Shown here: positions 7,703 to 20,463 of the stretch, one piece after another | How positions within the stretch are numbered: the stretch's first letter is position 1 | How the letters are laid out: each line of letters starts with the position of its first letter | Program-made: the position numbers and the translations under genes | Assembly (NCBI GenBank): GCA_038526085.1 | Contig: JBCBHE010000021.1 | Location: 3,705 to 67,704, forward strand | DNA from: Pseudomonadota bacterium | Lineage (GTDB): Bacteria; Pseudomonadota; Alphaproteobacteria; Rhodobacterales; Rhodobacteraceae | Length of the DNA stretch: 64,000 nucleotides | Direction: 5' to 3' | Notes under the pieces: generated by a model | Database searches by the model: none | The model's input: only the letters and a program-made list of their open reading frames with translations | Told to the model about the DNA's origin: nothing

Positions 7703-7873
7703 AGGGTGAGTGCCTTCTGACGTTATTTGTGACCGTGCGGTATAAGGGCTCGATTGCGAAACCGACACATGAAAATCATAACGTTGCACCGAATTTGTCA
7801 TAGTTGTGATCTAGCCTTGCCACCACGCGGCCTCCTATGGTTCGGTCGCATAAAAATAAAGGCAGAACAGGCA

Positions 7874-10800
7874 GTGTTCGATCGGATCTATCCCCAACGC
7901 CCACTGTGGGCGTTTAAGGGCGTTGCGCGTCGCGGAACGTCTGTGGCGGTTATGATCCTTTTCGGCTGGACCGAAATTGCTCGCGCGCAGGACCTGTCAT
8001 GGAACCTCACCAGTAACGGCAATTGGAACACGACGGATCCGAACTGGATCGAAGATGGGGTGGTTGCGCCGCTTGCGTTTACGAACGGCGCAAGCGTCAC
8101 GTTTGAAGAGGTGGGCGGCTTTACGGTGACCATCGACGATGGAAGCGTACAAGTCTCAGACATCACCTTTGTCGAAGACGGATATGCGATTGCGCAATCG
8201 AGCGGTGGCGCGCCCTTTGCCATTGAGCCGACAGGGGGTGCTTTTGCCCTGACGCTCAATGCGGGTGTCACAGCGACGGTTACCGCCCCGTTCACTGGTA
8301 CAGACCCAATCACGGTTGTGGGCACGCCGACATCAACTTTGGCCCTGTCCGGTGACAGCAGCGGCGCGACGGGCGAGTTGGATATCACCGGTGGAACGGT
8401 CACGCTCAGTGGTGATTATGGCGGTGCCGTCACTAACAGTGGTGAAAGCCTGACAAACACCGCAACGATTAGCGGTCTTGTCACCAATAACGCTGATCTG
8501 ACGGCGGCGGGGACCTTCAGCAGTGGGATTACCAATGCGGCTGGAACGGTGACAGTGACCGCGGACAGTACTGGCAACATAACGAACACTGGGGGTGATC
8601 TGACAGTCAACCTTGGGCAAACGTTGACTGGCGACGTCACGAATGCCGACGCGGCGCCCGACACGGTAGTCGACGGCAGCGTTGTGGGTAACCTGACGGT
8701 GTTCGACGGGACCGTCGACAACAATGGCACTGTGACCGGCAACACCGATGTGTCTGGTGGTGCGCTGACAAACGATGGGACGCTTGATGGGGCGTTGATT
8801 GTGACCGGCGGCACGGTGGACAACACCGCAAGCGTCGTCGGCAATGTCACCGTGAATGGCGGGACGGTCACGAACTCCGGGTCTTTGGGTGGCACGGTTG
8901 TAATTGCCCAGACCGGCGTTCCGGCAGCTGCTTTGAACGATACGGGTGGCACGATCGCCGGCTTGGTGACCAATACGGATGGCACGATCACGGCTGATGG
9001 CACCACGTTCACGTCTGGGCTGCAGCAGGATGGCGGTACCACGACGGCAACAGGCACGGATTTTGGAACCGGCGCCACGGTTGCAGGCGGTGCGCTCGCG
9101 ATCGACGGGGCCATGGCAGCGACGTCGACTGGCGATGTGGCTTTGACCGGCGGCGATCTGACGGTTGCGGCCGGGCAAACGTTGACCGGGGCTGTCACAA
9201 GTTCCGATGCTGCGTCTGAGACCGTGATCGATGGTACGGTGACGGGCGACCTGACAGTGAGCGACGGGACCGTCGACAACAATGGCACGGTCACTGGCAA
9301 TGCAGATGTGTCGGGCGGAGCGCTGACAAACGATGGGACGCTTGACGGTGCCCTTACCCAGTTGGATGGTGATGTGACGAACACCGGTGATGTGACTGGC
9401 AACACGATAATAAATAGCGGGACGTTTACCAATTCTGGCGGCTTGGGCGGGACACTGGTCTTGGATCAAACCGGGGCTGTTCCCGTCGAACTGAATGATA
9501 CTGGCGGCGTGATTGCTGGGCTGACGACAAATGTCGATGGCAGTATCACGGCTGACGGCACCACGTTTGCGGGCGGGTTGCGGCAGGTTGACGGTAACAC
9601 GGAGGTGACTGGCACCGATTTCGGCACCGGGTTGAACGTGGACGGCGGGAGCGTGACGATTTTCGGCTCCGCGCCAGCCACCAGTTCGGGCGATGCCACG
9701 CTGTCTGGCGGCGACTTGGTTGTTGGTGTGGACCAGACGTTTGCGGGTGACATTGTGATCGATGACCTCGATTCAGGCCTGCGCAATATTGGCACGATTG
9801 TTGGGGACGTCACTGTCAACGACGGTGTTTTCAATCATGAAGCGGTTGTGGTCGGTAATGTGATCGTCAACGATAGAAACTTCTTCAGCGAAGGCGGGCG
9901 TGTGACAGGGACCGTCACGCAGTCGGGTGGGATCAGCCGGTTCCGGCAAAGCCAAGTAGATGGTGGGTTGATCATTTCAGATGGCACGTCCAGCATTCGC
10001 GAGGACAGCACGCTGGACATCACAAACACAGGCGGTCGTGTTGATGTAGCGAGCGGGCAAACCCTGACAGGGAACATTGTTCAAACCGACGGACGGACGG
10101 ATTTGAGTGGTGTTGTCGATGGGACGTTGACGGCGAGCGGCGGTCGCGTCGACCACGGAGTCGGCGCAGACATTACGGGGCTAACGACGCTGCAAGGGGG
10201 CGTCGAGTTTAACGCGGACGGTGGCACATTTACCGGTGGATTGCGCGTTGAGGATGCCGATTTGACTTTGACCGGACCACTGGTCGGTGATCTTGAAAAC
10301 GCTGGCGAGGCGCTGTCCTTTGGCGATGGGGTCATTTTGGATGGCGACGTCTTGAATAGTGCTGGCACGTTGGATTTGGGCGCTTTGGTGACTGGCACGC
10401 TGACGGTCGATGACGGCGCTGTCACAACGACGCCCACTGCAACGATCCAAGGTGCGACGACCGTCAATGGTGGGACGTTGACTGCCGATGGCAGTACCTT
10501 CGACGGGGGGATCACCGTTGCTGGCGGCGATGTTGCGATCACAGAAGTGGGCACCATCAATGGCATGGCGATCAGTGACGGGACACTTGTGGTGGAAGGG
10601 ACCACGCCGTTGACCACCGACTTAGATGTGTCTGGTGGTGATACGACCCTGACGAGCGATATGGTGGGATCAGTCACGCAAAGTGGTGGGACGGTCACCC
10701 GATCCGGACAGTTGGATGGGACCGTCGATTTGAGCGATGGGACGTTCACAAATGCCGATGGTTCCATTTCGGGCGCCACGACGGTTACTGGTGGCACCCT

Positions 10801-13036
10801 GGTTGCAGATGGCGGCGACTTTGCTGAAACGGTTACAAGCCAGGGCGGCACGGTTCGGATTACAGGAGAGTCCACGGGCAGTATTGCGAACGTGTCTGGT
10901 GAGGTGATCGCCGAAACCGGTGGGACGCTTGATGGATCTATTACCAATCAAGGGACCGTAACTGGTGCTGGTGGCAGCATTACGGGTGATTTGACAAACA
11001 CCGGTACAGTCGATGTGACCGGCGGCGATTTGACTGTGGGTGACCTGACCTCGACAGGGAGTGTGACCGTTTCGAACGGTCATGCGTTGGGTTTTGACAC
11101 TGCAGAGATTGGCGGCGGAACCCTGGCGGTCACGAACGGGACGTTAGATGGCGACGTGACAGTTGCCGCTGGTGTCGATTTAACGGCGTCTAACATGACG
11201 GTCACCGGTGATTTCGCGACAATGACGGATCTGGTCAGCAATGGTGCGCTGAGCATCGGAGGTGACTTTGTAATGGACGACAGCGATCTGACCATTGCAA
11301 CCGGTCGTGCAGAGATCGGCGGCGATGTGACCTTTGCAGATGATGTGTTTGTGACGCTTGTGGATGGCACCGGATTGTCTGGGGCGACGATTACTAACGC
11401 GGGCCAGATGGCCGCCACCGGGACTGTCGCTTTCGCGGGCGACTTCACCAATTCTGGCACTCTGACAGCAACCGGCGCGCAAAGCTTCGATGGCCCGTTT
11501 ACGAACACTGGTACGTTGACCGCCACGGGCGATTTGTCCTTCAGTGGCCTTTTCACAAATAGTGGCGTCTTTGGTGCGGAAGGGTCGCTCACCTTTGGGG
11601 GCGGGCTGCAAAACACCAGCGGCATCACGACCGTGAACAACGACCCAACCGACACGATCACAATTGGGGGTGCCGGACTGAGCGGGGGTGGCACCCTGCA
11701 GTTTGATGTCGATTTATCGAACGAAGTGGGTGTGGCTGATCAGGTCACAATGGCACCAGGTGCCTTCATTACAGGCGATGTGACGCTGAACTTTAATGTC
11801 CTTGGCAGTGGCGCGCAGCAGCCCGTCGACCTTGTTTTAATTGACGTCGCTGCTGGTGACCCCGGCAACTTTAACATTGCCGCTGATGAGATTATCGACC
11901 CATCCGGCATTCTGACCTACAGCGTCACCCGCAATGCGGCAGGCGACGTTGTGATTGAGGATGCGCTGACGCCCGCGATTGCGGGTTTGGCCGGAAACAT
12001 CGTGCTGACCCAATCGCTGATTGGTTCGGTAGTGAACCGTCCGTCGAGCCCGTTTGTGACCAGTCTTGCCTATGAGGATGATAACCCATGCGGCTCAGGC
12101 ATGTGGGCGCGGACGATTGGCGGTGGTGCGACATCTGCAGGTGAGGTGTCGGAGTTCGGTTTGGAAGGCGGTGCATTTGATGGGCGCATCTCGGCCACCT
12201 TTGCTGGCGTCCAGTTGGGTGCCGACTTTGCGTGCTTTAACGGCGTCTACAACGGCTGGGACTTGGCCGTTGGCTCGATCGGTGGTGTGAACATCGGGCA
12301 GACCAGCCAGCCTGTGTTTGCGATTGATCTTGAGCAAGCGGACAACCTGTCGGATCGGCAGACCAGCACGACAACCGTTGACTTTACGCAGTTCTATAGC
12401 GGAGTGTATGCGACCGCTGTGCGTGGGCCTTGGGCCGTCGATTTGCAGTATCGGTTTGAGATGACCGACTTTACCGCGACCAATGAGGGTGCGGATGGTT
12501 TGCCGGGGCTTGGCCTTGATGACACCGCCTTCGATAGTTTTGCAACGACGCTGAGTGGGGCAGCGAGTTACGTCTATAATGTGCCTGACACGAACATTGC
12601 CCTCGTCCCGACCGCTGGCTTCGCCTTTACTCAGGTCAGTACTGACGAGATCAACTTTGAAAGTCGCGGCATCGTGCGCATTGACGACTTTGATAGCCGG
12701 ATTGGGTTCATTGGTGGTACGCTTGCGATATCCAACTTCGGCGACGATGGCGTGTCGGCGTACCAAGAATTTGTGTCGGCCACCATTTACAATGATTTTG
12801 CTGATGGTCCGACATCTACCTTTTCACCCGTTGACGAAAGCGGCGATCGCCGGTTGCGGACGGAGAACTTAGGGCTCTACAGCGAGCTGAGCGTTGGTGT
12901 GAACTACGTCAAGGTGCTGCAACCCGGAGAATTTGGCGCCGTCAAACAGCTGTCCGCCAATGCACGCGCTGATCTGAGGATCAGTGAAAGACTCAAAAGC
13001 TGGGGCATCACTGCCCAAGCCCGATATCAGTTCTAA
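7874..13036 (+). CDS. Giant autotransporter-like outer-membrane protein with Gly/Thr/Asp-rich beta-helical passenger
   Basis: Signal-peptide-like N-terminus ending IARA-QD; repetitive GTV/TNTG passenger; C-terminal ~300-aa barrel-like region starting near GMWARTIGGG and ending RYQF. Start uncertain (ORF is open from 7754; GTG 7874 chosen). Confidence 0.8.
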   Translation: MFDRIYPQRPLWAFKGVARRGTSVAVMILFGWTEIARAQDLSWNLTSNGNWNTTDPNWIEDGVVAPLAFTNGASVTFEEVGGFTVTIDDGSVQVSDITFVEDGYAIAQSSGGAPFAIEPTGGAFALTLNAGVTATVTAPFTGTDPITVVGTPTSTLALSGDSSGATGELDITGGTVTLSGDYGGAVTNSGESLTNTATISGLVTNNADLTAAGTFSSGITNAAGTVTVTADSTGNITNTGGDLTVNLGQTLTGDVTNADAAPDTVVDGSVVGNLTVFDGTVDNNGTVTGNTDVSGGALTNDGTLDGALIVTGGTVDNTASVVGNVTVNGGTVTNSGSLGGTVVIAQTGVPAAALNDTGGTIAGLVTNTDGTITADGTTFTSGLQQDGGTTTATGTDFGTGATVAGGALAIDGAMAATSTGDVALTGGDLTVAAGQTLTGAVTSSDAASETVIDGTVTGDLTVSDGTVDNNGTVTGNADVSGGALTNDGTLDGALTQLDGDVTNTGDVTGNTIINSGTFTNSGGLGGTLVLDQTGAVPVELNDTGGVIAGLTTNVDGSITADGTTFAGGLRQVDGNTEVTGTDFGTGLNVDGGSVTIFGSAPATSSGDATLSGGDLVVGVDQTFAGDIVIDDLDSGLRNIGTIVGDVTVNDGVFNHEAVVVGNVIVNDRNFFSEGGRVTGTVTQSGGISRFRQSQVDGGLIISDGTSSIREDSTLDITNTGGRVDVASGQTLTGNIVQTDGRTDLSGVVDGTLTASGGRVDHGVGADITGLTTLQGGVEFNADGGTFTGGLRVEDADLTLTGPLVGDLENAGEALSFGDGVILDGDVLNSAGTLDLGALVTGTLTVDDGAVTTTPTATIQGATTVNGGTLTADGSTFDGGITVAGGDVAITEVGTINGMAISDGTLVVEGTTPLTTDLDVSGGDTTLTSDMVGSVTQSGGTVTRSGQLDGTVDLSDGTFTNADGSISGATTVTGGTLVADGGDFAETVTSQGGTVRITGESTGSIANVSGEVIAETGGTLDGSITNQGTVTGAGGSITGDLTNTGTVDVTGGDLTVGDLTSTGSVTVSNGHALGFDTAEIGGGTLAVTNGTLDGDVTVAAGVDLTASNMTVTGDFATMTDLVSNGALSIGGDFVMDDSDLTIATGRAEIGGDVTFADDVFVTLVDGTGLSGATITNAGQMAATGTVAFAGDFTNSGTLTATGAQSFDGPFTNTGTLTATGDLSFSGLFTNSGVFGAEGSLTFGGGLQNTSGITTVNNDPTDTITIGGAGLSGGGTLQFDVDLSNEVGVADQVTMAPGAFITGDVTLNFNVLGSGAQQPVDLVLIDVAAGDPGNFNIAADEIIDPSGILTYSVTRNAAGDVVIEDALTPAIAGLAGNIVLTQSLIGSVVNRPSSPFVTSLAYEDDNPCGSGMWARTIGGGATSAGEVSEFGLEGGAFDGRISATFAGVQLGADFACFNGVYNGWDLAVGSIGGVNIGQTSQPVFAIDLEQADNLSDRQTSTTTVDFTQFYSGVYATAVRGPWAVDLQYRFEMTDFTATNEGADGLPGLGLDDTAFDSFATTLSGAASYVYNVPDTNIALVPTAGFAFTQVSTDEINFESRGIVRIDDFDSRIGFIGGTLAISNFGDDGVSAYQEFVSATIYNDFADGPTSTFSPVDESGDRRLRTENLGLYSELSVGVNYVKVLQPGEFGAVKQLSANARADLRISERLKSWGITAQARYQF
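8588..9800 (+). repeat. 558-bp (186-aa) tandem intragenic repeat: two clear copies plus a diverged third
   Basis: GACGGGACCGTCGACAACAATGGCAC at 8705 and 9263; GGDL-x-V unit starts at 8588, 9146 and 9704 (period 558). Confidence 0.85.
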
Positions 13037-13044
13037 GGATTAAA

Positions 13045-13794
13045 ATGACCCCTGCAGACCCCTTTATGAAGGTTGATTTCGCGTTCGAAAGCTTCGGCGC
13101 GACTGATATTGGGCTCCGCCGTAAATACAACGAAGACCGCTTTGCCATGTTGCCGGAGCATGGTGTTTGGCTTGTCGCCGATGGGATGGGGGGGCACGCT
13201 GGCGGCGACTATGCGAGCCAAGCCGTGATCGATGACTTACCAAGTTTTGAAGGCGCTTTGACCCTTGGAGATTTGGAAAACCGGTTTCACGATGGGTTGG
13301 CTGAGGCGCATGTCCGAATGCTGCGGGTCGCGAAGGCGCTGAGCATGGATGCGATCGCCACGACCGTGGTTGGGTTGCTGATTTATCAGGATGAATTTGC
13401 ATCAATTTGGTCGGGCGACAGCCGCCTTTACCAGATGCGCGACGGGTCCCTGAAGCCGGTCACGCGCGACCATTCCGAAGCACGAGAGTTGGTGGATGCG
13501 GGTGTCTTGACCCCGGAGCAGGCGCGCACCTGGCATCGCCGCAATATCGTGACACGCGCCCTTGGGGTTTATGACCATCTAAGCGCAGAGACTGCCTATG
13601 GGGAGGTTGCGGCTGGCGATACCTTCTTGCTGTGTACCGATGGACTGACCGAACATGTCACGGATCAAGAACTTGAAGCGATCCTGAAGGAGGCCGACAG
13701 CGCGCAGGCGGCCGTTGAGAAGATGATCAGCAAGACGCTCGACCGGGGTGCGGTCGACAACGTCACGGCGATTGTCGTGCGGGTGCAGTCATGA
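13045..13794 (+). CDS. PP2C/PPM-family Ser/Thr protein phosphatase
   Basis: TDIGLRRKYNED, VADGMGGH, GDSRLY, LLCTDGLT, DNVT. Confidence 0.95.
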   Translation: MTPADPFMKVDFAFESFGATDIGLRRKYNEDRFAMLPEHGVWLVADGMGGHAGGDYASQAVIDDLPSFEGALTLGDLENRFHDGLAEAHVRMLRVAKALSMDAIATTVVGLLIYQDEFASIWSGDSRLYQMRDGSLKPVTRDHSEARELVDAGVLTPEQARTWHRRNIVTRALGVYDHLSAETAYGEVAAGDTFLLCTDGLTEHVTDQELEAILKEADSAQAAVEKMISKTLDRGAVDNVTAIVVRVQS

Positions 13795-15569
13795 CACAGG
13801 TTGACCCACCTATGGGGGCTGGTGCTTTGGAAAGCACGGTGCCGCTTGGGACGGTCATCAACAACAACTACAAGATCATGGAGCTACTGAGCATTGGTGG
13901 CATGGGTGAGGTGTTCTTGGGCGAGAACACGTTCACGGGCGACCCTGTGGCGATTAAGATCGTGCTGCGCGAGCTAGCCCAAGATGAGAACATTACCCAG
14001 TTATTCCGAAAAGAAGCTCGCGTGCTTTGCGGTTTGTCGGACCCAGCGGTCGTTCGGTACTTCAACTTTGTTCGTGATGAAAACCTCGACCGGTATTGCC
14101 TGATCATGGAGTTTGTCGACGGCATGGTGCTGTCCGATCATGTGCTCAAGGTCGCGCCACTGGATGTTGAAACGGCGTTGGTTTTGCTGCGCCGCTTGGC
14201 GGTTGGGCTGGCCCAGGTCCACGCGATGGGTGTTGTGCACCGCGACCTGTCGCCCGACAACGTAATCCTCCGCGACAATGCGATTGATGAGGCGGTGCTC
14301 ATCGATTTTGGCATCGCAAAATCGACGGAGCTGTCGGACAAGACGCTGCACGGGCAGTTGACTGGCAAGCTAAAGTTTATTTCACCCGAACAGCTGGGCC
14401 ACCATGATAGCGTGATCAGCCGGAAGACGGATATCTACGGTCTTGCCTTGCTGATCGCCTATGCGGTGCAGGGCAAGCCGTTGCCGATGGGTGAATCGGT
14501 GGTGGAAGCGGTGAACGCCCGGATGGTGATCCCTGATCTACGTGAATTCGACCCGCGTTTACGCGCCATTCTGGCCCATATGTTGGAACCCGATCCTGCG
14601 GATCGACCCGACAGTATGGATGCCGTCGTCGAATTGGTTGATCATCCGGGCCGGCTGCCTGAGAAGTACCGCCCTTTAGGCCCAAAGGTGGACCCGAGTG
14701 CCGCCTCAGATGCGGCAATGGATGCGGTGTTTCAGCCGCCCAAGCTGATCCCCGGCAAGCTTGCCGTCGATGCTCCGCTAGAGCCAGCAGTGCCTGCCGC
14801 AAGTGGTGGCGCTACGCTGCGATGGGTTGGGGTGCTGGCCTTGGTTGGTGCGCTTGGCTGGTTTGTGGCGGATCAGCAGGGATGGCTTGGAACGCCGGAG
14901 GTGGCTGATACGGAAGAGACCGTTGACGTGGCGCCTGCAACCGAAGGCGCTGTCACCCGCGCCAGCTATCTGGCGACCTATGCAGAAGGCTGCGCCTTTG
15001 CGGTGCGGATTGCAGCGGGGCCGGACGCAGGGACGGTTGCGGGTTATGCAGGTGATGTCGCAGCCTTTGATGACCTGTCCGCAGATTACGATGCGACGTT
15101 CAGCGCCGCCCCGACGGTGAATACGTTTGCGTTGTCAGGGGCCCAATGCCCTGTTGCGACGCTTGGCAAGGCCTTGCAATCCCGCGATGGGGGTGCGCCG
15201 TTGATGACGCTTGATAGTGACACCATGCAAAGTGATGGCACGATTGTTGGGCGCCTGTCTGACCGGCGTGGGCGGCCCGTGTGGCTGGCACTCGTGACGG
15301 CGGCAGGGGGCGTTTATAACCTGACGGATCGGCTGGTCGAACAGCCAGACGGCAGTGCGACTTTCAATTTTGGCCTAACTGCCGATGGCACGGACGCGCC
15401 GCAGGGGCAGGTGCTTATCGCCTTGGCGAGTGATGCACCCCTGATCGCCGCTGCGGCAGCGGCCGAAGGGGCATCAGCGCAGAGTCTTCTCCCATTGATC
15501 GAAGCGGAGATTGCTGGACGTGATGGACGCGTGGGTATGGCTTTGGGGTACTTTACGCTTGAGCCTTAA
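13791..15569 (+). CDS. Membrane-anchored Hanks-type Ser/Thr kinase with periplasmic C-terminal domain
   Basis: GGMGEVF, VAIK, HRDLSPDN, DFG, SPEQ, DIYGL; TM WVGVLALVGALGWFVA; ~200-aa C-terminal domain with two Cys. Confidence 0.93.
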   Translation: MTQVDPPMGAGALESTVPLGTVINNNYKIMELLSIGGMGEVFLGENTFTGDPVAIKIVLRELAQDENITQLFRKEARVLCGLSDPAVVRYFNFVRDENLDRYCLIMEFVDGMVLSDHVLKVAPLDVETALVLLRRLAVGLAQVHAMGVVHRDLSPDNVILRDNAIDEAVLIDFGIAKSTELSDKTLHGQLTGKLKFISPEQLGHHDSVISRKTDIYGLALLIAYAVQGKPLPMGESVVEAVNARMVIPDLREFDPRLRAILAHMLEPDPADRPDSMDAVVELVDHPGRLPEKYRPLGPKVDPSAASDAAMDAVFQPPKLIPGKLAVDAPLEPAVPAASGGATLRWVGVLALVGALGWFVADQQGWLGTPEVADTEETVDVAPATEGAVTRASYLATYAEGCAFAVRIAAGPDAGTVAGYAGDVAAFDDLSADYDATFSAAPTVNTFALSGAQCPVATLGKALQSRDGGAPLMTLDSDTMQSDGTIVGRLSDRRGRPVWLALVTAAGGVYNLTDRLVEQPDGSATFNFGLTADGTDAPQGQVLIALASDAPLIAAAAAAEGASAQSLLPLIEAEIAGRDGRVGMALGYFTLEP

Positions 15570-15588
15570 GGCGCCGCGCATCGTCCGA

Positions 15589-16908
15589 CTAGCGTACGTC
15601 GAATGGGGCAACTGTGATTGTCGCCCGGCCTTCAATCTCAGAGGTGAGCGCGCCGAAGTAGTTTTCGGCCAATTGACCGTTTTGGCGCGTCGAGGAAGTG
15701 GGCCGTGTTGCCGTCCCGATTGCCAGCAAGAGTTGACGGGTATCGCGTGCCGCGCCAGCACGTCGTAGCGGAGCTGCGAAGCGCGCTGTGTTCACGCCAA
15801 CCGTCAGGTAGTTGCCAAGGTCTTGGGCGACGCCGTTGTCATCAACCAGGACAAGGGTAATGTTGCGCCCGCCCGTGCCCGACAGACGCCCTGTCAGCTC
15901 TGTTCCGCTTTCAATGCGCGGTGCATCGAGGCCAAGCGCCATCGGTCCGGTTGGGTAGCCCGCTGTTGCCCGGATGTAATCGAGCGCCGCGCATTGGCGT
16001 GGATCGACAAGGATCGTGCTTTGCGGGGGGCGTGGCGTGAGACCAGCGAGGATTTCGTCAGTGTAAGGTCCGACGGCGGCTTCATTTGCCGCATAGATTT
16101 GCAAGCTGACTGTGCCGTTCTGCTGCAGTGGTATCGCAATCATACAAGTGGCGCCAACTGAGGCGCGAATACGCGCGATCAAGTCTGCTGCCAAAGGATC
16201 GGGGATGACGGCGTCTGGCACGGCAGGGCGTGGGGCAGGGGCTGGCGTACCAAGGGTTTCCGCTTGCGCGATCGCTTGGGTCACTGGTGACTGCGACTGG
16301 GTTGTTTGCACAACGCGGGCCTGTGAGACCGGTTGTGCCACGGTTGTGGATGGCGCGGCAGGGGCGGTAGTTACCGTCTCTGCGAGCTGCGATGCAGGCT
16401 GTGTCGGCGCAGACGCAACGGGTGCCGCGGTTGGATTGACTGGGCGCAGGGGGCTGATGGTTTCTGGTCCGATAGCTGGTGCGGTTGATGCGGTTTCCGA
16501 CTCTGTTGCGGTGTCTGCAGGCGCGATCGCATCTAGCGCATCGGACGGCGAAACGGGGGCAAGGATTTCGCGTTTGGTGATGTCTTGCAAGCCGTCTTCT
16601 ACGGCGATGGCTTCGGTTTCCTGACCATCCGTTTGCGCATCGACGACGAGGGAGGCCCCAACAGGCTGGAGCGTGTCGGCGCCATCGCCTCCGGTGTCAC
16701 CGGAGCCGATTTCGGCACTAAAGACGTTTCGTGTATCGATGGAGAGGGAGGTGATCTGGACCTCTGGCGTCTCCCGTTCTTGTAAGTCAAAAACAGCACC
16801 GACATCGACCACAGCCGTCAGCACGAAATAAGCGAAACCGACGTGGACAAGAGCGGATAGCCCAAAGGCCTCCGCCCAATGCAGCGGCTTTTCGTTTTGG
16901 ACGATCAT
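15589..16908 (-). CDS. TonB/TolA-like single-pass protein with non-TonB C-terminal domain
   Basis: N-terminal TM with S-x3-H (LSALVHVG); Ala/Pro/Thr/Gln-rich linker; follows exbB-exbD-exbD; C-domain resembles the kinase C-domain. Confidence 0.7.
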   Translation of the reverse strand: MIVQNEKPLHWAEAFGLSALVHVGFAYFVLTAVVDVGAVFDLQERETPEVQITSLSIDTRNVFSAEIGSGDTGGDGADTLQPVGASLVVDAQTDGQETEAIAVEDGLQDITKREILAPVSPSDALDAIAPADTATESETASTAPAIGPETISPLRPVNPTAAPVASAPTQPASQLAETVTTAPAAPSTTVAQPVSQARVVQTTQSQSPVTQAIAQAETLGTPAPAPRPAVPDAVIPDPLAADLIARIRASVGATCMIAIPLQQNGTVSLQIYAANEAAVGPYTDEILAGLTPRPPQSTILVDPRQCAALDYIRATAGYPTGPMALGLDAPRIESGTELTGRLSGTGGRNITLVLVDDNGVAQDLGNYLTVGVNTARFAAPLRRAGAARDTRQLLLAIGTATRPTSSTRQNGQLAENYFGALTSEIEGRATITVAPFDVR

Positions 16909-17309
16909 TGCACCTGGTCCCGCGTTCGCAATGTGACGAGGCGGAGTTCAATGTTGGAGAGGGCAGGGGTGTTCATCACCTCTAGCAGTCCCGATGCTGG
17001 CGCATCGCGCCCGATCAGGACATGCAGCACAATCGGCTTTGGCAAGTCCGCCAGCGCCACATCCATGAGTTCAGGTGCAACAGGCATCCCGTCGAGTTGC
17101 CAATGATCCCCATCCACGATCAGGATCGGGGTTGGGAGGGCATCGATTGGAAGTTCTTGTGTCTCTGCCAAGTCCACATCGCCAGTTGCGGGGTTCAGCA
17201 ATTGGCCGGTCGCCAAGAAGAACAAGATCAGCAACAGCACAATGTTCACGATGGCGAGGGAGACATCGAGCTTGATGGGCTCGGGGCGTTTGGGGAGACT
17301 GTCGATCAT
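16905..17309 (-). CDS. exbD: ExbD/TolR family protein (Asn at the usual TM Asp position)
   Basis: SLAIVNIVLLLILFFLATG transmembrane segment; periplasmic domain with GRDAP; ATGA overlap with neighbours. Confidence 0.75.
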   Translation of the reverse strand: MIDSLPKRPEPIKLDVSLAIVNIVLLLILFFLATGQLLNPATGDVDLAETQELPIDALPTPILIVDGDHWQLDGMPVAPELMDVALADLPKPIVLHVLIGRDAPASGLLEVMNTPALSNIELRLVTLRTRDQVQ

Positions 17310-17746
17310 ACTGTGCCCCCTGCGATTTGTACGTTTGTAATACCCGCTGTCGTTAGCGCTTCAACCACGCGCGCCAAATCTTGCACCACTGCGCCATCGC
17401 GTAAGATTAACAGGACCGTGGTGTCTTGGGTCGCCATGGCGGCGGTGAGATCCGGCAGCGCTTCAAACCCGAAGGCTTGACCGCTGACAGTGACGCCGTC
17501 GGCGGATACGTTCCAAATGGCGACCTCTGCAAAGGAGGTTGCTGTGCTTTCTGCGGCAGTGCCGGCCGTGTTTGCAAAGTCGCCCGATGCCCCGCTTCGG
17601 ATTGTCATGAGCGCGTAGGGTGCCAGACTGCTCGACAACATAAAGAAGATCAGCAATTGGAACATCGCGTCGGCCAAGGGCGTCAGCACAAATTTGTACC
17701 GGCGTGGCCGTTGGGCGAGCGTGAATTTGGGGGCGACCGTTGTCAT
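17306..17746 (-). CDS. exbD: ExbD/TolR family protein
   Basis: LTPLADAMFQLLIFFMLSS with conserved TM Asp. Confidence 0.82.
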   Translation of the reverse strand: MTTVAPKFTLAQRPRRYKFVLTPLADAMFQLLIFFMLSSSLAPYALMTIRSGASGDFANTAGTAAESTATSFAEVAIWNVSADGVTVSGQAFGFEALPDLTAAMATQDTTVLLILRDGAVVQDLARVVEALTTAGITNVQIAGGTV

Positions 17747-17755
17747 GGCGCAGGT

Positions 17756-18397
17756 TTATCCCGCTGCCTCACTGTCGACGCGCCCGTGGATTGCGGCAGA
17801 GATCAGCGTTTCCATCGCCTGACGCTCTCCCTCGATCCGGCCTTCGAGCCAGGTCGCGGCGAAGTAGGTGATCAGTGCGATGGCCAGGCCCGCGGCCGTG
17901 GTGGTCAGCGCTGTCCAGATACCGCTGGCCAGCAATGTTGGGTCCACGGTGCCATCGGCAGCGGCGAGGGTCGAAAAGGCATCGATCATGCCAATCACAG
18001 TGCCGAGGAGGCCGAGCATCGGGGCACCTTGTACGATAACCTCGAGCACACGCATGCGGCGCGACAGCCGCGAGAGTTCCGTCATCGCCGTTTGACGGCC
18101 AAGTTCTGCCGCGAAGTCAGGCATACCTGGTTTGGCACGCAGGCCGGAGAAGACGGATTGTAACACGCGTCCTAACACAAAGCGCTGTTCACCCGCATGG
18201 CGCACCGCGTCTTCGGCTTGGCCGCCAAGCCAAGTGCCCAAGATCGCTTCTGCCGCGTTGAATTGGCCGACGCCAAGGCGATTGAACTGGAAGGTCTTGT
18301 AGAAAGTGACGGTGACCGCCAGCACAGACATGATTGCGAGCGCCGCGAAAACAATCAACGACGGCAAGTTCAAAACGGACAAATCAGGAGCGTTCAT
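17756..18397 (-). CDS. exbB: MotA/TolQ/ExbB proton channel protein
   Basis: GAPMLGLLGTVIGMIDAF, GIWTALTTTAAGLAIAL. Confidence 0.92.
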   Translation of the reverse strand: MNAPDLSVLNLPSLIVFAALAIMSVLAVTVTFYKTFQFNRLGVGQFNAAEAILGTWLGGQAEDAVRHAGEQRFVLGRVLQSVFSGLRAKPGMPDFAAELGRQTAMTELSRLSRRMRVLEVIVQGAPMLGLLGTVIGMIDAFSTLAAADGTVDPTLLASGIWTALTTTAAGLAIALITYFAATWLEGRIEGERQAMETLISAAIHGRVDSEAAG

Positions 18398-18409
18398 ATG
18401 GGGACGCCT

Positions 18410-18853
18410 TTACAAACCAAACTGAATCGCAGCACGGGATGATGTTGCGAGGGAGGACATGCAGAAATCACCGGTCGTGGCGGTATCTGTTGGCGTACAC
18501 GCCGCCACATCGTTAACGATGATGCGCGAGGTGTCAGCACAGGTCTGACCGGCGATGTCGAATTGAACCACGCGGGTCTTGCCTTCGGGCAGCGCGCCAA
18601 AGGCCAAAACCAGGATACGGCTTACGATACCATTGCCGTCAAACACGGCGACTTCGTAAGACGCTTGGTCGAGCCCGGTGCCGGTGCGATTGGTTGCGAC
18701 ATAGGTCAAACGGCAGTCGCTGGTCGCGGTATCCGAAGCTGAGTTGAGTTCCAAAAAGAACTCCTCAGCCTCATTTTGGGCAAATACCGGTGTTATCGAT
18801 GCTGCTGAGACGGCAAATGCGGTCAGCAAAGCGGGAATCAGGCGGTAGCTCAT
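18410..18853 (-). CDS. Secreted four-Cys hypothetical protein, first gene of the motor operon
   Basis: Signal peptide ending PVFA-QN; LELN...CR...FGALPEGKTRVVQFD...C...NDVAAC. As I recall, this type sits ahead of exbBD in alphaproteobacteria (not verified). Confidence 0.75.
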   Translation of the reverse strand: MSYRLIPALLTAFAVSAASITPVFAQNEAEEFFLELNSASDTATSDCRLTYVATNRTGTGLDQASYEVAVFDGNGIVSRILVLAFGALPEGKTRVVQFDIAGQTCADTSRIIVNDVAACTPTDTATTGDFCMSSLATSSRAAIQFGL

Positions 18854-19023
18854 CGGAACCTCAACAGTAGGTAACTCAAAGGGTTGCAGCGAATTGGCCG
18901 CATTGTTCGCAGGCTGGCAACAAAGCTTGGCAGAATTGTGGCCCAGGCAAGGTTTTGGAAGGCAATCCGCAGGGTCGGATCGCCTGTAATTTGAGGGCGC
19001 CGGAATTGGCGCAGAGTTGGGTG

Positions 19024-20463
19024 ATGATGGCGCGACGCTGGATCACAACGGGTCTATGTGCATCCGCACTTGCGGTGTCGTTCGCGACTGTCGCGCATGC
19101 TGAGGCCAAACGCGCATTGGTGGTAGTGGATCGACCGGATGCAGCGGATCAGGCCATCGCGATCTCAGAGACTTTGTTAGGGCTCGGCTTTGACGTTGCG
19201 CGCCTGGAATCCCCCACCCCGCAGGCCCTGGACGACGCGCTACAGACACTGACAGTAGAAGGTGGACCAACGGCAATTTACTTTGCCGGGGATCTTGGCG
19301 ATCTGACGGATTTCACGGGCGCTGGTGGTGAGACCCCGAGATTTATTTTCGTCGATGCATGCCAAGAGGTTGCTGTTGATGCGCTTCCGTCGAATGTCTT
19401 TCTGGTCAGCCCAGGTGCTGATTGTGCGGGTGATGTTGCGGCTGTTGTGCAGGAGTGGTTGACCGTTCCCGGCCTGAGCACCGATCAATGGGACCTGGGC
19501 GAGACGGTTCAGATTTCTTCAACACTCACCGCCCCATACGTCTTTCGCGAAACCACCAGCGACGTGCGGTTGACGGCCGAAGACTACGCCTTGCTTGATA
19601 GTCTGTCGCCCGAGGCGCGCGCCCAAATGATCCGGTTGTGGCGGAGCGCCGGCATTGCCGTGGACGTTGCGGACGCAGCTGCGTTGGCTCCCGTTGCCCC
19701 TGTTCAAGTGGCCCGTGATACGGTGCAGGTGATTGCGCCCGTATCTGCGGCGGCCGCATCGACGGTTGTCCGCCCAATTGCCCCGGTTCCGGTTTCCGGT
19801 GGTGTCACACAACCCGCTCGGGCGGGAAGCACGAGCCGCACCCTGAGCCCGACGATTAATTTACCAACCCCAGGCGCGGCTGGTCTGCCTGCGCCGTCGA
19901 TCCTTGTCGGCTTTGTCACGGATAGCTTGCCAGAGGCGCCAGAAGTGCCCGATGAGCCGGTCGCAGGTGCTGCTTTCGGTACCGATGATGTTGCGGCGCG
20001 CGAAGCGCTGCGGGAGCAAGACGCTGATCTGTTTGCGGGTTTGGTTTCATCCGGTGCGTTCGACCCGACTGACGATGTCATTCGCGCCTTGCAAGTCGAG
20101 TTGGCCCGGATCAACTGCTACACGTCGGGGATTGATGGCGCTTGGGGCCCCGGATCACAGCGGGCCTTGGCCGCATTCTATGACCTGAGCGGGACGAACC
20201 CGTCCGACGCGACACCTGATCTTGAGGATTTCCGCACCGTGATCGCAGCAAATGGCGTTCGCTGTCCGGATCCGCCGCCGCCGCCGACTCGCCAAGCAGC
20301 GACATCGTCGCAATCGACAGCGCAACCGGCTCGCGCGGCAGCACCGGCTGCATCACAGCCACGCCGGGCGACACCTGCACCGGCACCCGCGCCAGCCCCT
20401 GCTGCGCCGTCCGCGCCGCGCCGGAGCATCAACCAGACTGGAGGGTCTGGTATCTTCCGCTAG
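19024..20463 (+). CDS. Secreted protein: degenerate caspase (peptidase C14)-like domain, Pro/Ala linker, peptidoglycan-binding domain
   Basis: Signal peptide ending VAHA-EAK; KRALVV, LGFDV, IYFAGD, FVDACQ; ALQVELARINCYTSGIDGAWGPGSQRAL (PG_binding_1-like). Confidence 0.75.
   Translation: MMARRWITTGLCASALAVSFATVAHAEAKRALVVVDRPDAADQAIAISETLLGLGFDVARLESPTPQALDDALQTLTVEGGPTAIYFAGDLGDLTDFTGAGGETPRFIFVDACQEVAVDALPSNVFLVSPGADCAGDVAAVVQEWLTVPGLSTDQWDLGETVQISSTLTAPYVFRETTSDVRLTAEDYALLDSLSPEARAQMIRLWRSAGIAVDVADAAALAPVAPVQVARDTVQVIAPVSAAAASTVVRPIAPVPVSGGVTQPARAGSTSRTLSPTINLPTPGAAGLPAPSILVGFVTDSLPEAPEVPDEPVAGAAFGTDDVAAREALREQDADLFAGLVSSGAFDPTDDVIRALQVELARINCYTSGIDGAWGPGSQRALAAFYDLSGTNPSDATPDLEDFRTVIAANGVRCPDPPPPPTRQAATSSQSTAQPARAAAPAASQPRRATPAPAPAPAPAAPSAPRRSINQTGGSGIFR

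Follow-up and report, generated by a model that had tools for sequence, protein, structure and literature searches.

We analysed a 64,000-nucleotide stretch of Rhodobacteraceae DNA (contig JBCBHE010000021.1, positions 3,705 to 67,704; hereafter the window). At positions 15589 to 16908 it holds a gene for a TonB-like energy transducer, designated P0001, whose C-terminal tip is related to the periplasmic sensor domain of a PpkA-like kinase encoded next to it. A first-pass annotation of the sequence had drawn attention to this gene; its coordinates hold as given, and we add that the gene lies on the minus strand. The open reading frame (ORF) and its parts are listed below, with the predicted local distance difference test (pLDDT) as the confidence measure of AlphaFold2 (AF2) models and with transmembrane shortened to TM.

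15589..16908, minus strand: TonB-like energy transducer P0001; ATG at 16908, stop at 15589, 439 aa
16813..16884, minus strand: N-terminal TM anchor, residues 9 to 32, with W11 and S18-x3-H22; AF2 helix, pLDDT 86-90
16735..16767, minus strand: post-TM motif P48-EVQITSLSI-D58, conserved in family alignments; consensus P-x3-ITSL-x2-D
16204..16776, minus strand: Ala/Thr/Pro-rich linker predicted to be disordered, residues 45 to 235, 191 aa; AF2 pLDDT about 37-55
15967..16197, minus strand: C-domain subdomain 1, residues 238 to 314, predicted alpha-beta-beta-alpha-beta-alpha; AF2 pLDDT 92, modelled alone
15595..15939, minus strand: C-domain subdomain 2, residues 324 to 438, predicted immunoglobulin (Ig)-like beta-sandwich; AF2 pLDDT >90

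The N terminus of P0001 reads MIVQNEKPLHWAEAFGLSALVHVG, and its residues L17-S18-A19-L20-V21-H22 fall inside the predicted helix of residues 9 to 32. Neither W11 nor H22 varies across 48 homologues, and S18 is conserved in at least 90%; of the 189 proteins retrieved, nearly all that are full-length carry the anchor pattern W-x5-8-[S/G/A]-x3-H. By analogy, the P48-D58 motif would be the positional equivalent of the post-TM segment of E. coli TonB, which joins the periplasmic dimer of ExbD as a beta-strand (bioRxiv 10.1101/2023.08.11.552980). The linker of P0001 is composed of 17% Ala, 13% Thr, and 11.5% Pro, has an acidic net charge, and contains an invariant P156 within the sequence I-S-P-L-R-P. 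Its length ranges from 78 to 430 aa across the family, and in many relatives it is Glu/Pro-rich. Both the S-x3-H motif (LSALVH) in an N-terminal TM segment and the Ala/Pro/Thr linker had been noticed in the first-pass annotation; the modelled helix and its conservation agree with the former, and the composition and predicted disorder of the 191 residues with the latter.

P0001 is encoded by the last gene of a minus-strand operon with the order p147, ExbB, ExbD1, ExbD2, TonB-like gene.

18410..18853, minus strand: p147, first operon gene; secreted (signal peptide), Cys-containing, 147 aa; no family match
17756..18397, minus strand: ExbB/TolQ-family proton-channel subunit, 213 aa; PF01618, 1.5e-26
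17306..17746, minus strand: ExbD1, 146 aa, TM Asp26 retained (LTPLADAMF); PF02472, 6.4e-11
16905..17309, minus strand: ExbD2, 134 aa, Asn22 at the position of the proton-carrying Asp (SLAIVNIVLLL); weak PF02472 match, 0.003

The last three junctions of the operon are a 9-bp gap followed by two 4-bp overlaps, the second between ExbD2 and the TonB-like gene, and translation of the motor genes is coupled; a promoter and terminator scan of positions 15400 to 19100 found nothing. The genome holds three ExbB/TolQ-family genes, of which this ExbB is one. About 60 or more family loci keep both the Asp of ExbD1 and the Asn of ExbD2, implying an obligate asymmetric ExbD pair in the motor. The TonB/TolA-type anchor and linker proposed earlier are thus joined genetically to an ExbB/ExbD motor of their own, and functional coupling of P0001 to that motor is predicted from the linkage. 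A dedicated Ton-like motor has P0001 as its arm across the periplasm, and this arm keeps the N-terminal logic of TonB.

The spacing of S18-x3-H22 equals that of TolA, and the TolQ model TIGR02796 is the one that the ExbB matches best (2e-13, far below the cut-off), as might be expected if P0001 were a variant TolA belonging to the Tol-Pal system of cell division. We regard this as scarcely credible. The canonical system is encoded elsewhere, in a complete ybgC-tolQ-tolR-tolA-tolB-pal-cpoB locus on contig C14, and a TolA identity was rejected on that ground. P0001 also lacks a TolA-III fold, has no tolB or pal nearby, and, because its linker is predicted to be disordered, has no long helical domain II.

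The tip comprises about 200 aa, with residues 236 to 439 at pLDDT >90 in an AF2 model built on a 48-sequence alignment. Subdomain 1 carries an invariant C255 and an invariant D302-x-R-Q-C306, and C255 and C306 probably form a periplasmic disulfide. The motifs D-x-RQC, YP, LVDDNGVVQDL, R-x-G-x2-RDT, QNGQLA, and PFDVR are conserved in the family, the last four of them in subdomain 2. A Foldseek search with the tip model returned only generic Ig-like folds, with the Ig-like fold of SoxY as the top match (E = 8e-4). Since the topology of subdomain 1 could mask a TonB/TolA-type fold, residues 236 to 322 were modelled alone; the best match was then at E = 0.069, with a weak likeness to ring-building motif (RBM; PrgH/PrgK/FliF) and BON modules. 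No TonB or TolA structure is among the top 50 Foldseek matches of either the full model or the isolated alpha/beta subdomain.

Sequence searches gave the same picture. P0001 has no match in Pfam, NCBIfam, or the PDB sequences, a profile of the tip has none in the PDB, and TonB_C (PF03544/PF13103) matches none of the 48 family members even at E ≤ 10. By sequence and predicted structure, the C-terminal domain of P0001 is neither TonB_C nor TolA-III. The first-pass annotation had found neither domain recognizable there and had proposed a Pfam check for TonB_C; Pfam, the PDB profile search, and Foldseek on the AF2 models are all negative, and the domain does not model as canonical TonB_C. Its description of the effector domain as "replaced" is accurate in that a non-TonB domain is present, but it suggests a recent exchange, whereas some 600 sequence clusters share this architecture, which is old and stable. 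A metagenomic protein of 1874 aa without Pfam matches (P0072) has five tandem copies of the domain's Ig-like half (query residues ~68 to 192), so the sandwich subdomain is also a repeat unit in a giant protein. An anti-phage defence system was considered and rejected, as the system-specific PADLOC models (e.g., Zorya) yielded nothing beyond a ZorA/MotA-family match (1.9e-4) and kinase-domain matches, all of them generic.

The convergent gene that meets P0001 tail to tail across a 19-bp gap encodes a membrane-bound kinase preceded by a phosphatase.

13791..15569, plus strand: PpkA-like Hanks Ser/Thr kinase, 592 aa, with a TM segment; PF00069, 2.2e-33
14901..15566, plus strand: C-terminal periplasmic sensor domain of the kinase, 220 aa, paralogous to the TonB-like tip
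13045..13794, plus strand: PP2C phosphatase (PppA-like), overlapping the start of the kinase gene; PF13672, PF00481

The resemblance between tip and sensor is faint in a direct BLASTP comparison (E = 6e-4), stronger in a tblastn search through the orthologous kinase of a related locus, L001 (E = 2.5e-9), and clear in a profile-profile alignment with hhalign (99.4% probability, E = 3e-21, 191 columns including both Cys residues). When 32 tips and 27 kinase sensors are placed in one maximum-likelihood tree, they fall into two clades with 100/100 support, which are separated by a branch of about 3.7 substitutions per site and show parallel sub-structure. Two clean clades with parallel sub-trees point to one old duplication followed by co-inheritance. 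At the level of sequence, these comparisons establish that the tip and the PpkA-like kinase's periplasmic sensor are ancient paralogues. Earlier annotation of the tip was right about its non-TonB nature but missed this identity; the kinase gene lies 19 bp away. No other part of the locus evolves as fast as tip and sensor, whose median distances are 1.0 and 1.2, compared with 0.47 to 0.59 for ExbB, the kinase domain, and PP2C.

The window kinase is 51% identical to the kinase in L001's type VI secretion system (T6SS) cluster. Kinases of some T6SS-positive relatives (L001, L004, L005, L007, and L012) are longer, at about 890 aa, and carry some 245 additional residues at the N terminus, an extension missing from the 592-aa window kinase; in L001 the extended gene occupies positions 11436 to 14108.

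An exhaustive HMMER search recovered 596 clusters at 50% identity that contain the tip domain, almost always at the C terminus and behind a TonB-like anchor. All 80 sampled genome loci belong to Rhodobacterales; cultivable, non-pathogenic strains that bear the motor genes and arm include Jannaschia rubra CECT 5088, Celeribacter ethanolicus NH195, Loktanella agnita R10SW5, and Rhodobacter aestuarii DSM 19945. Within Rhodobacteraceae, the family of the window organism, the domain occurs in 10 of 151 genera. Synteny was counted at loci with enough flanking sequence. ExbB-ExbD-ExbD lies beside the TonB-like gene at all 68 such loci, and p147 is the first gene of the operon at 66 of them. The convergent kinase with the shared domain is adjacent at 50 of 59 loci, PP2C at 51, TagF at 50, and TssM and TssL-OmpA at 51 each. 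The nine loci that have no adjacent kinase all come from genomes with a domain-bearing kinase elsewhere (E = 1e-57 to 6e-79), usually 20 to 60 kb away and beside TssM, which is present in eight of the nine. Five more diverged genera show the identical layout. Motor, arm, and kinase therefore co-occur obligately in each genome, and we refer to them as the module.

In most Rhodobacterales, motor, arm, and kinase flank a T6SS cluster (PP2C-TagF-TssM-TssL). By genus, TssM is found in 8 of the 10 that carry the domain, compared with 29 of the 141 others (Fisher P = 2e-4). The first-pass annotation overlooked this ancestral tie to the T6SS and threonine-phosphorylation cluster, in which TssM is adjacent at 51 of 59 loci. 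TssM proteins of module-bearing genomes score E = 1e-62 to 1e-76 against PF06761, and those of most module-less genomes 1e-80 to 1e-89; the lower scores hint at a distinct T6SS lineage within the family, of which the motor module would be a marker.

P0001 could also be the TonB that this organism uses to serve its TonB-dependent receptors, its receptor-binding domain having diverged strongly. The window's genome encodes five such receptors, all on other contigs, and its assembly has no TonB_C or TonB_2 match anywhere. A paralogue of p147 (32% identity; C80:5238-5660) likewise precedes another ExbB beside a TonB-dependent receptor, on a contig (C80) of 6.2 kb. That receptor locus has its own ExbB, however, and the contig ends inside the ExbB gene; in a genome that is 91% complete and in 123 contigs, the TonB of that locus is probably unassembled. 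Five of 12 module-bearing genomes, 97 to 99% complete where given, have no TonB-dependent receptor (PF00593), from which it follows that uptake is not the job of the module, and four other module-bearing genomes encode a canonical TonB_C separately, no more than a few kb from their receptors. The fold of the tip is not TonB_C, as the Foldseek searches above indicate, and the distribution of the family tracks the kinase and the T6SS and not the receptors. A canonical TonB role is very unlikely for the family as a whole, and for P0001 we give this explanation very little credence. p147, for its part, has the look of a periplasmic partner of ExbB that is general in Rhodobacterales and has gone undescribed.

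A Pfam scan of 28 window proteins, which included all ORFs of at least 450 aa and was not exhaustive, found no TonB-dependent receptor, TolB, or Pal. This bears out the first-pass observation that such partners are missing from the window; genome-wide they do exist, as the five receptors and the Tol-Pal locus on other contigs demonstrate. The suggestion that the motor acts on a different target fits the five receptor-less genomes and the four with a separate TonB, in that the target would not be a receptor; that force is delivered to it is something we infer.

The window's genome departs from the common arrangement. TssM, TssC/VipB, TagF, and the TssL core were all looked for in the assembly and not found. 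Of a PpkA/PppA-type pathway, the assembly has the kinase and PP2C, both in the window, and no match to an FHA-domain target over the Pfam cut-off. Where relatives carry TagF-TssM-TssL, the PP2C-kinase pair is preceded by a gene for a giant protein.

7754..13036, plus strand: giant repetitive Thr/Gly/Asp-rich protein, 1760 aa, with an outer membrane protein-like C terminus (...ARYQF); start codon uncertain

The giant protein has no Pfam match, and the label "autotransporter" could not be confirmed. The giant-PP2C-kinase operon is kept in a 78% relative (L082), where it lies beside the motor, and in a 58% relative (G159), where it is on a contig other than that of the motor and where TssM is also missing. 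In L055, the TonB-like gene is followed directly downstream by a gene for a homologue of the C-terminal 770 aa of the giant (36% identity, E = 4e-94). A further genome without TssM, G039, likewise retains both kinase and motor. Adjacency of the module to a T6SS is thus a feature seen in relatives and not in the window's genome, G159, or G039. As the window's genome, L082/G159, and G039 have the module without a T6SS, the motor-arm-kinase trio outlives the secretion system, and the motor-kinase pair, rather than the T6SS, appears to be the functional unit.

These observations lead us to favour, with somewhat better than even confidence, a module that serves as an input powered by the proton-motive force (PMF) to a kinase pathway, or as a partner of that pathway, which was once a T6SS switch and has been rewired in this lineage. 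ExbB, ExbD1, and ExbD2 would turn the PMF into movement or tension of the TonB-like arm. The tip may then pair with the paralogous sensor of the kinase, or compete with it for a common ligand in the periplasm or outer envelope; paralogues often retain an ancestral dimer interface. Kinase and phosphatase signalling would thereby be gated by the state of the envelope and the PMF. The ancestral output would have been the threonine-phosphorylation switch for T6SS firing. With the T6SS lost from the window's lineage and kinase-PP2C now in one operon with a giant outer membrane-like protein, the module appears to have been rewired to another output, which may be that co-operonic surface protein.

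Several observations weigh against this interpretation. The sensor lacks two strongly conserved motifs of the tip, DDNGVVQD and RxGxxRDT, so that tip and sensor may bind different things, and a physical contact between the two is something we infer. In a mirror-tree comparison, the correlation between tip and sensor distance matrices (partial r = 0.23) is no higher than that between other parts of the locus, all of which co-diverge. The window's genome lacks an FHA-domain protein over the Pfam cut-off as well as the T6SS, and its assembly is 91% complete. A final difficulty comes from other frequent neighbours of the motor, one of which is divergently transcribed.

18955..20463, plus strand: p502, 502 aa, diverged caspase (C14)-like protein with a PG_binding_1-like C terminus

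p502 is 32.5% identical over 486 aa to a PF00656 protein of L001, and the window copy itself gives only trace Pfam signals. At 63 of 68 loci, the divergent C14-like/peptidoglycan-binding gene is the most constant non-motor neighbour and as constant as the kinase; DUF1036 (55 of 68) and an M23 peptidase (50 of 68) are also frequent. Such neighbours would fit a peptidoglycan-directed role.

In the main rival explanation, the module would be a Tol-Pal-like machine of the peptidoglycan or envelope that works with the C14-like protein, DUF1036, and the M23 peptidase, for example in local remodelling or tethering of the wall upon insertion of a trans-envelope apparatus, with the kinase sharing a domain by descent only. 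Beyond the neighbour counts and the PG_binding_1-like tail of p502, seven loci hold the C14-like gene and the motor but have neither kinase nor T6SS in the vicinity; the 58% relative keeps motor and C14-like gene together and has its kinase operon on another contig; and RBM and BON modules, which the alpha/beta subdomain weakly resembles, are periplasmic. We nevertheless consider this explanation unlikely, if worth keeping in mind. The kinase is never missing from module-bearing genomes, and chance hardly explains both the paralogy of tip and sensor and their tail-to-tail placement at 50 of 59 loci. DUF1036 and M23 are missing from the window, with no DUF1036 homologue genome-wide, and the motor is intact; no peptidoglycan-binding fold was detected in the tip.

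The PMF-powered input to a kinase pathway can also be put in a more specific form, which we offer tentatively and hold to be less than probable. The PMF motor would provide a eukaryote-type Ser/Thr kinase with mechanical input, the tip either heterodimerizing with the sensor or pulling a shared ligand away from it, and the kinase would report envelope integrity and energization; the whole would be a modular unit that moved from the T6SS to a giant surface protein.

Ton-, Tol-, and Mot-type motors power import, division, gliding, and flagella. If the proposed role is correct, a motor arm that ends in a copy of a kinase sensor adds signal transduction to these tasks, and it supplies a missing type of input for post-translational T6SS control in an abundant marine clade. 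The window is especially useful here, as it shows the motor-kinase pair persisting after loss of the T6SS. We found no description in the literature of an ExbBD/TonB-like module linked to a T6SS or a kinase. What is new is a Ton-like motor with a new tip, from a family of about 600 clusters without a Pfam model, and a new class of partner.

Like the Ton system, the module has a TM anchor with S-x3-H, a conserved post-TM segment, and a long disordered, Pro-containing linker in P0001, and it is encoded in an operon with ExbB and ExbD, the TM Asp being present in ExbD1. It differs from that system in the tip of P0001, which is a 200-aa alpha/beta plus Ig-like domain instead of TonB_C, in having two ExbD paralogues, one with Asn replacing the TM Asp, and in its lack of linkage to receptors, being found in receptor-less genomes. 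With TolQ-TolR-TolA it shares the S18/H22 anchor and a motor of the same family, but not the helical domain II, TolA-III, or linkage to tolB/pal, and the genome has a canonical Tol-Pal system at another site. Motors with roles other than uptake include PocAB-TonB3 of P. aeruginosa and, in Myxococcus, AglQRS with its TonB-like GltG/GltJ. SjdR of Anabaena belongs to another non-uptake Ton/Tol-like system (PMC8262864). All of these resemble the module in combining an ExbBD/TolQR-type motor with a TonB-like adaptor for a task other than import. Their adaptors, however, are called TonB-like for a C-terminal TonB-type domain, which P0001 does not have, and none is known to be paired with a kinase bearing a paralogous domain.

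The periplasmic domain of P. aeruginosa PpkA is a von Willebrand factor A domain, unlike the sensor of the window kinase, which belongs to a family without a Pfam model. The threonine-phosphorylation pathways of T6SSs comprise PpkA-PppA with TagQRST input in the H1-T6SS of P. aeruginosa and PpkA-TssL-Fha in Agrobacterium (PMC3953482, PMC10482370, PMC11881912). Unlike PpkA-PppA systems, the window's genome has neither a T6SS nor an FHA match over the cut-off. The likeness to PpkA-PppA lies in a membrane Hanks kinase with a periplasmic domain, in PP2C and TagF beside TssM/TssL in most relatives, and in an accessory set, periplasmic or in the envelope, that presumably provides the kinase with input. 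In this module, however, the accessory set is a PMF motor with a TonB-like arm and not the TagQRST lipoprotein/ABC set.

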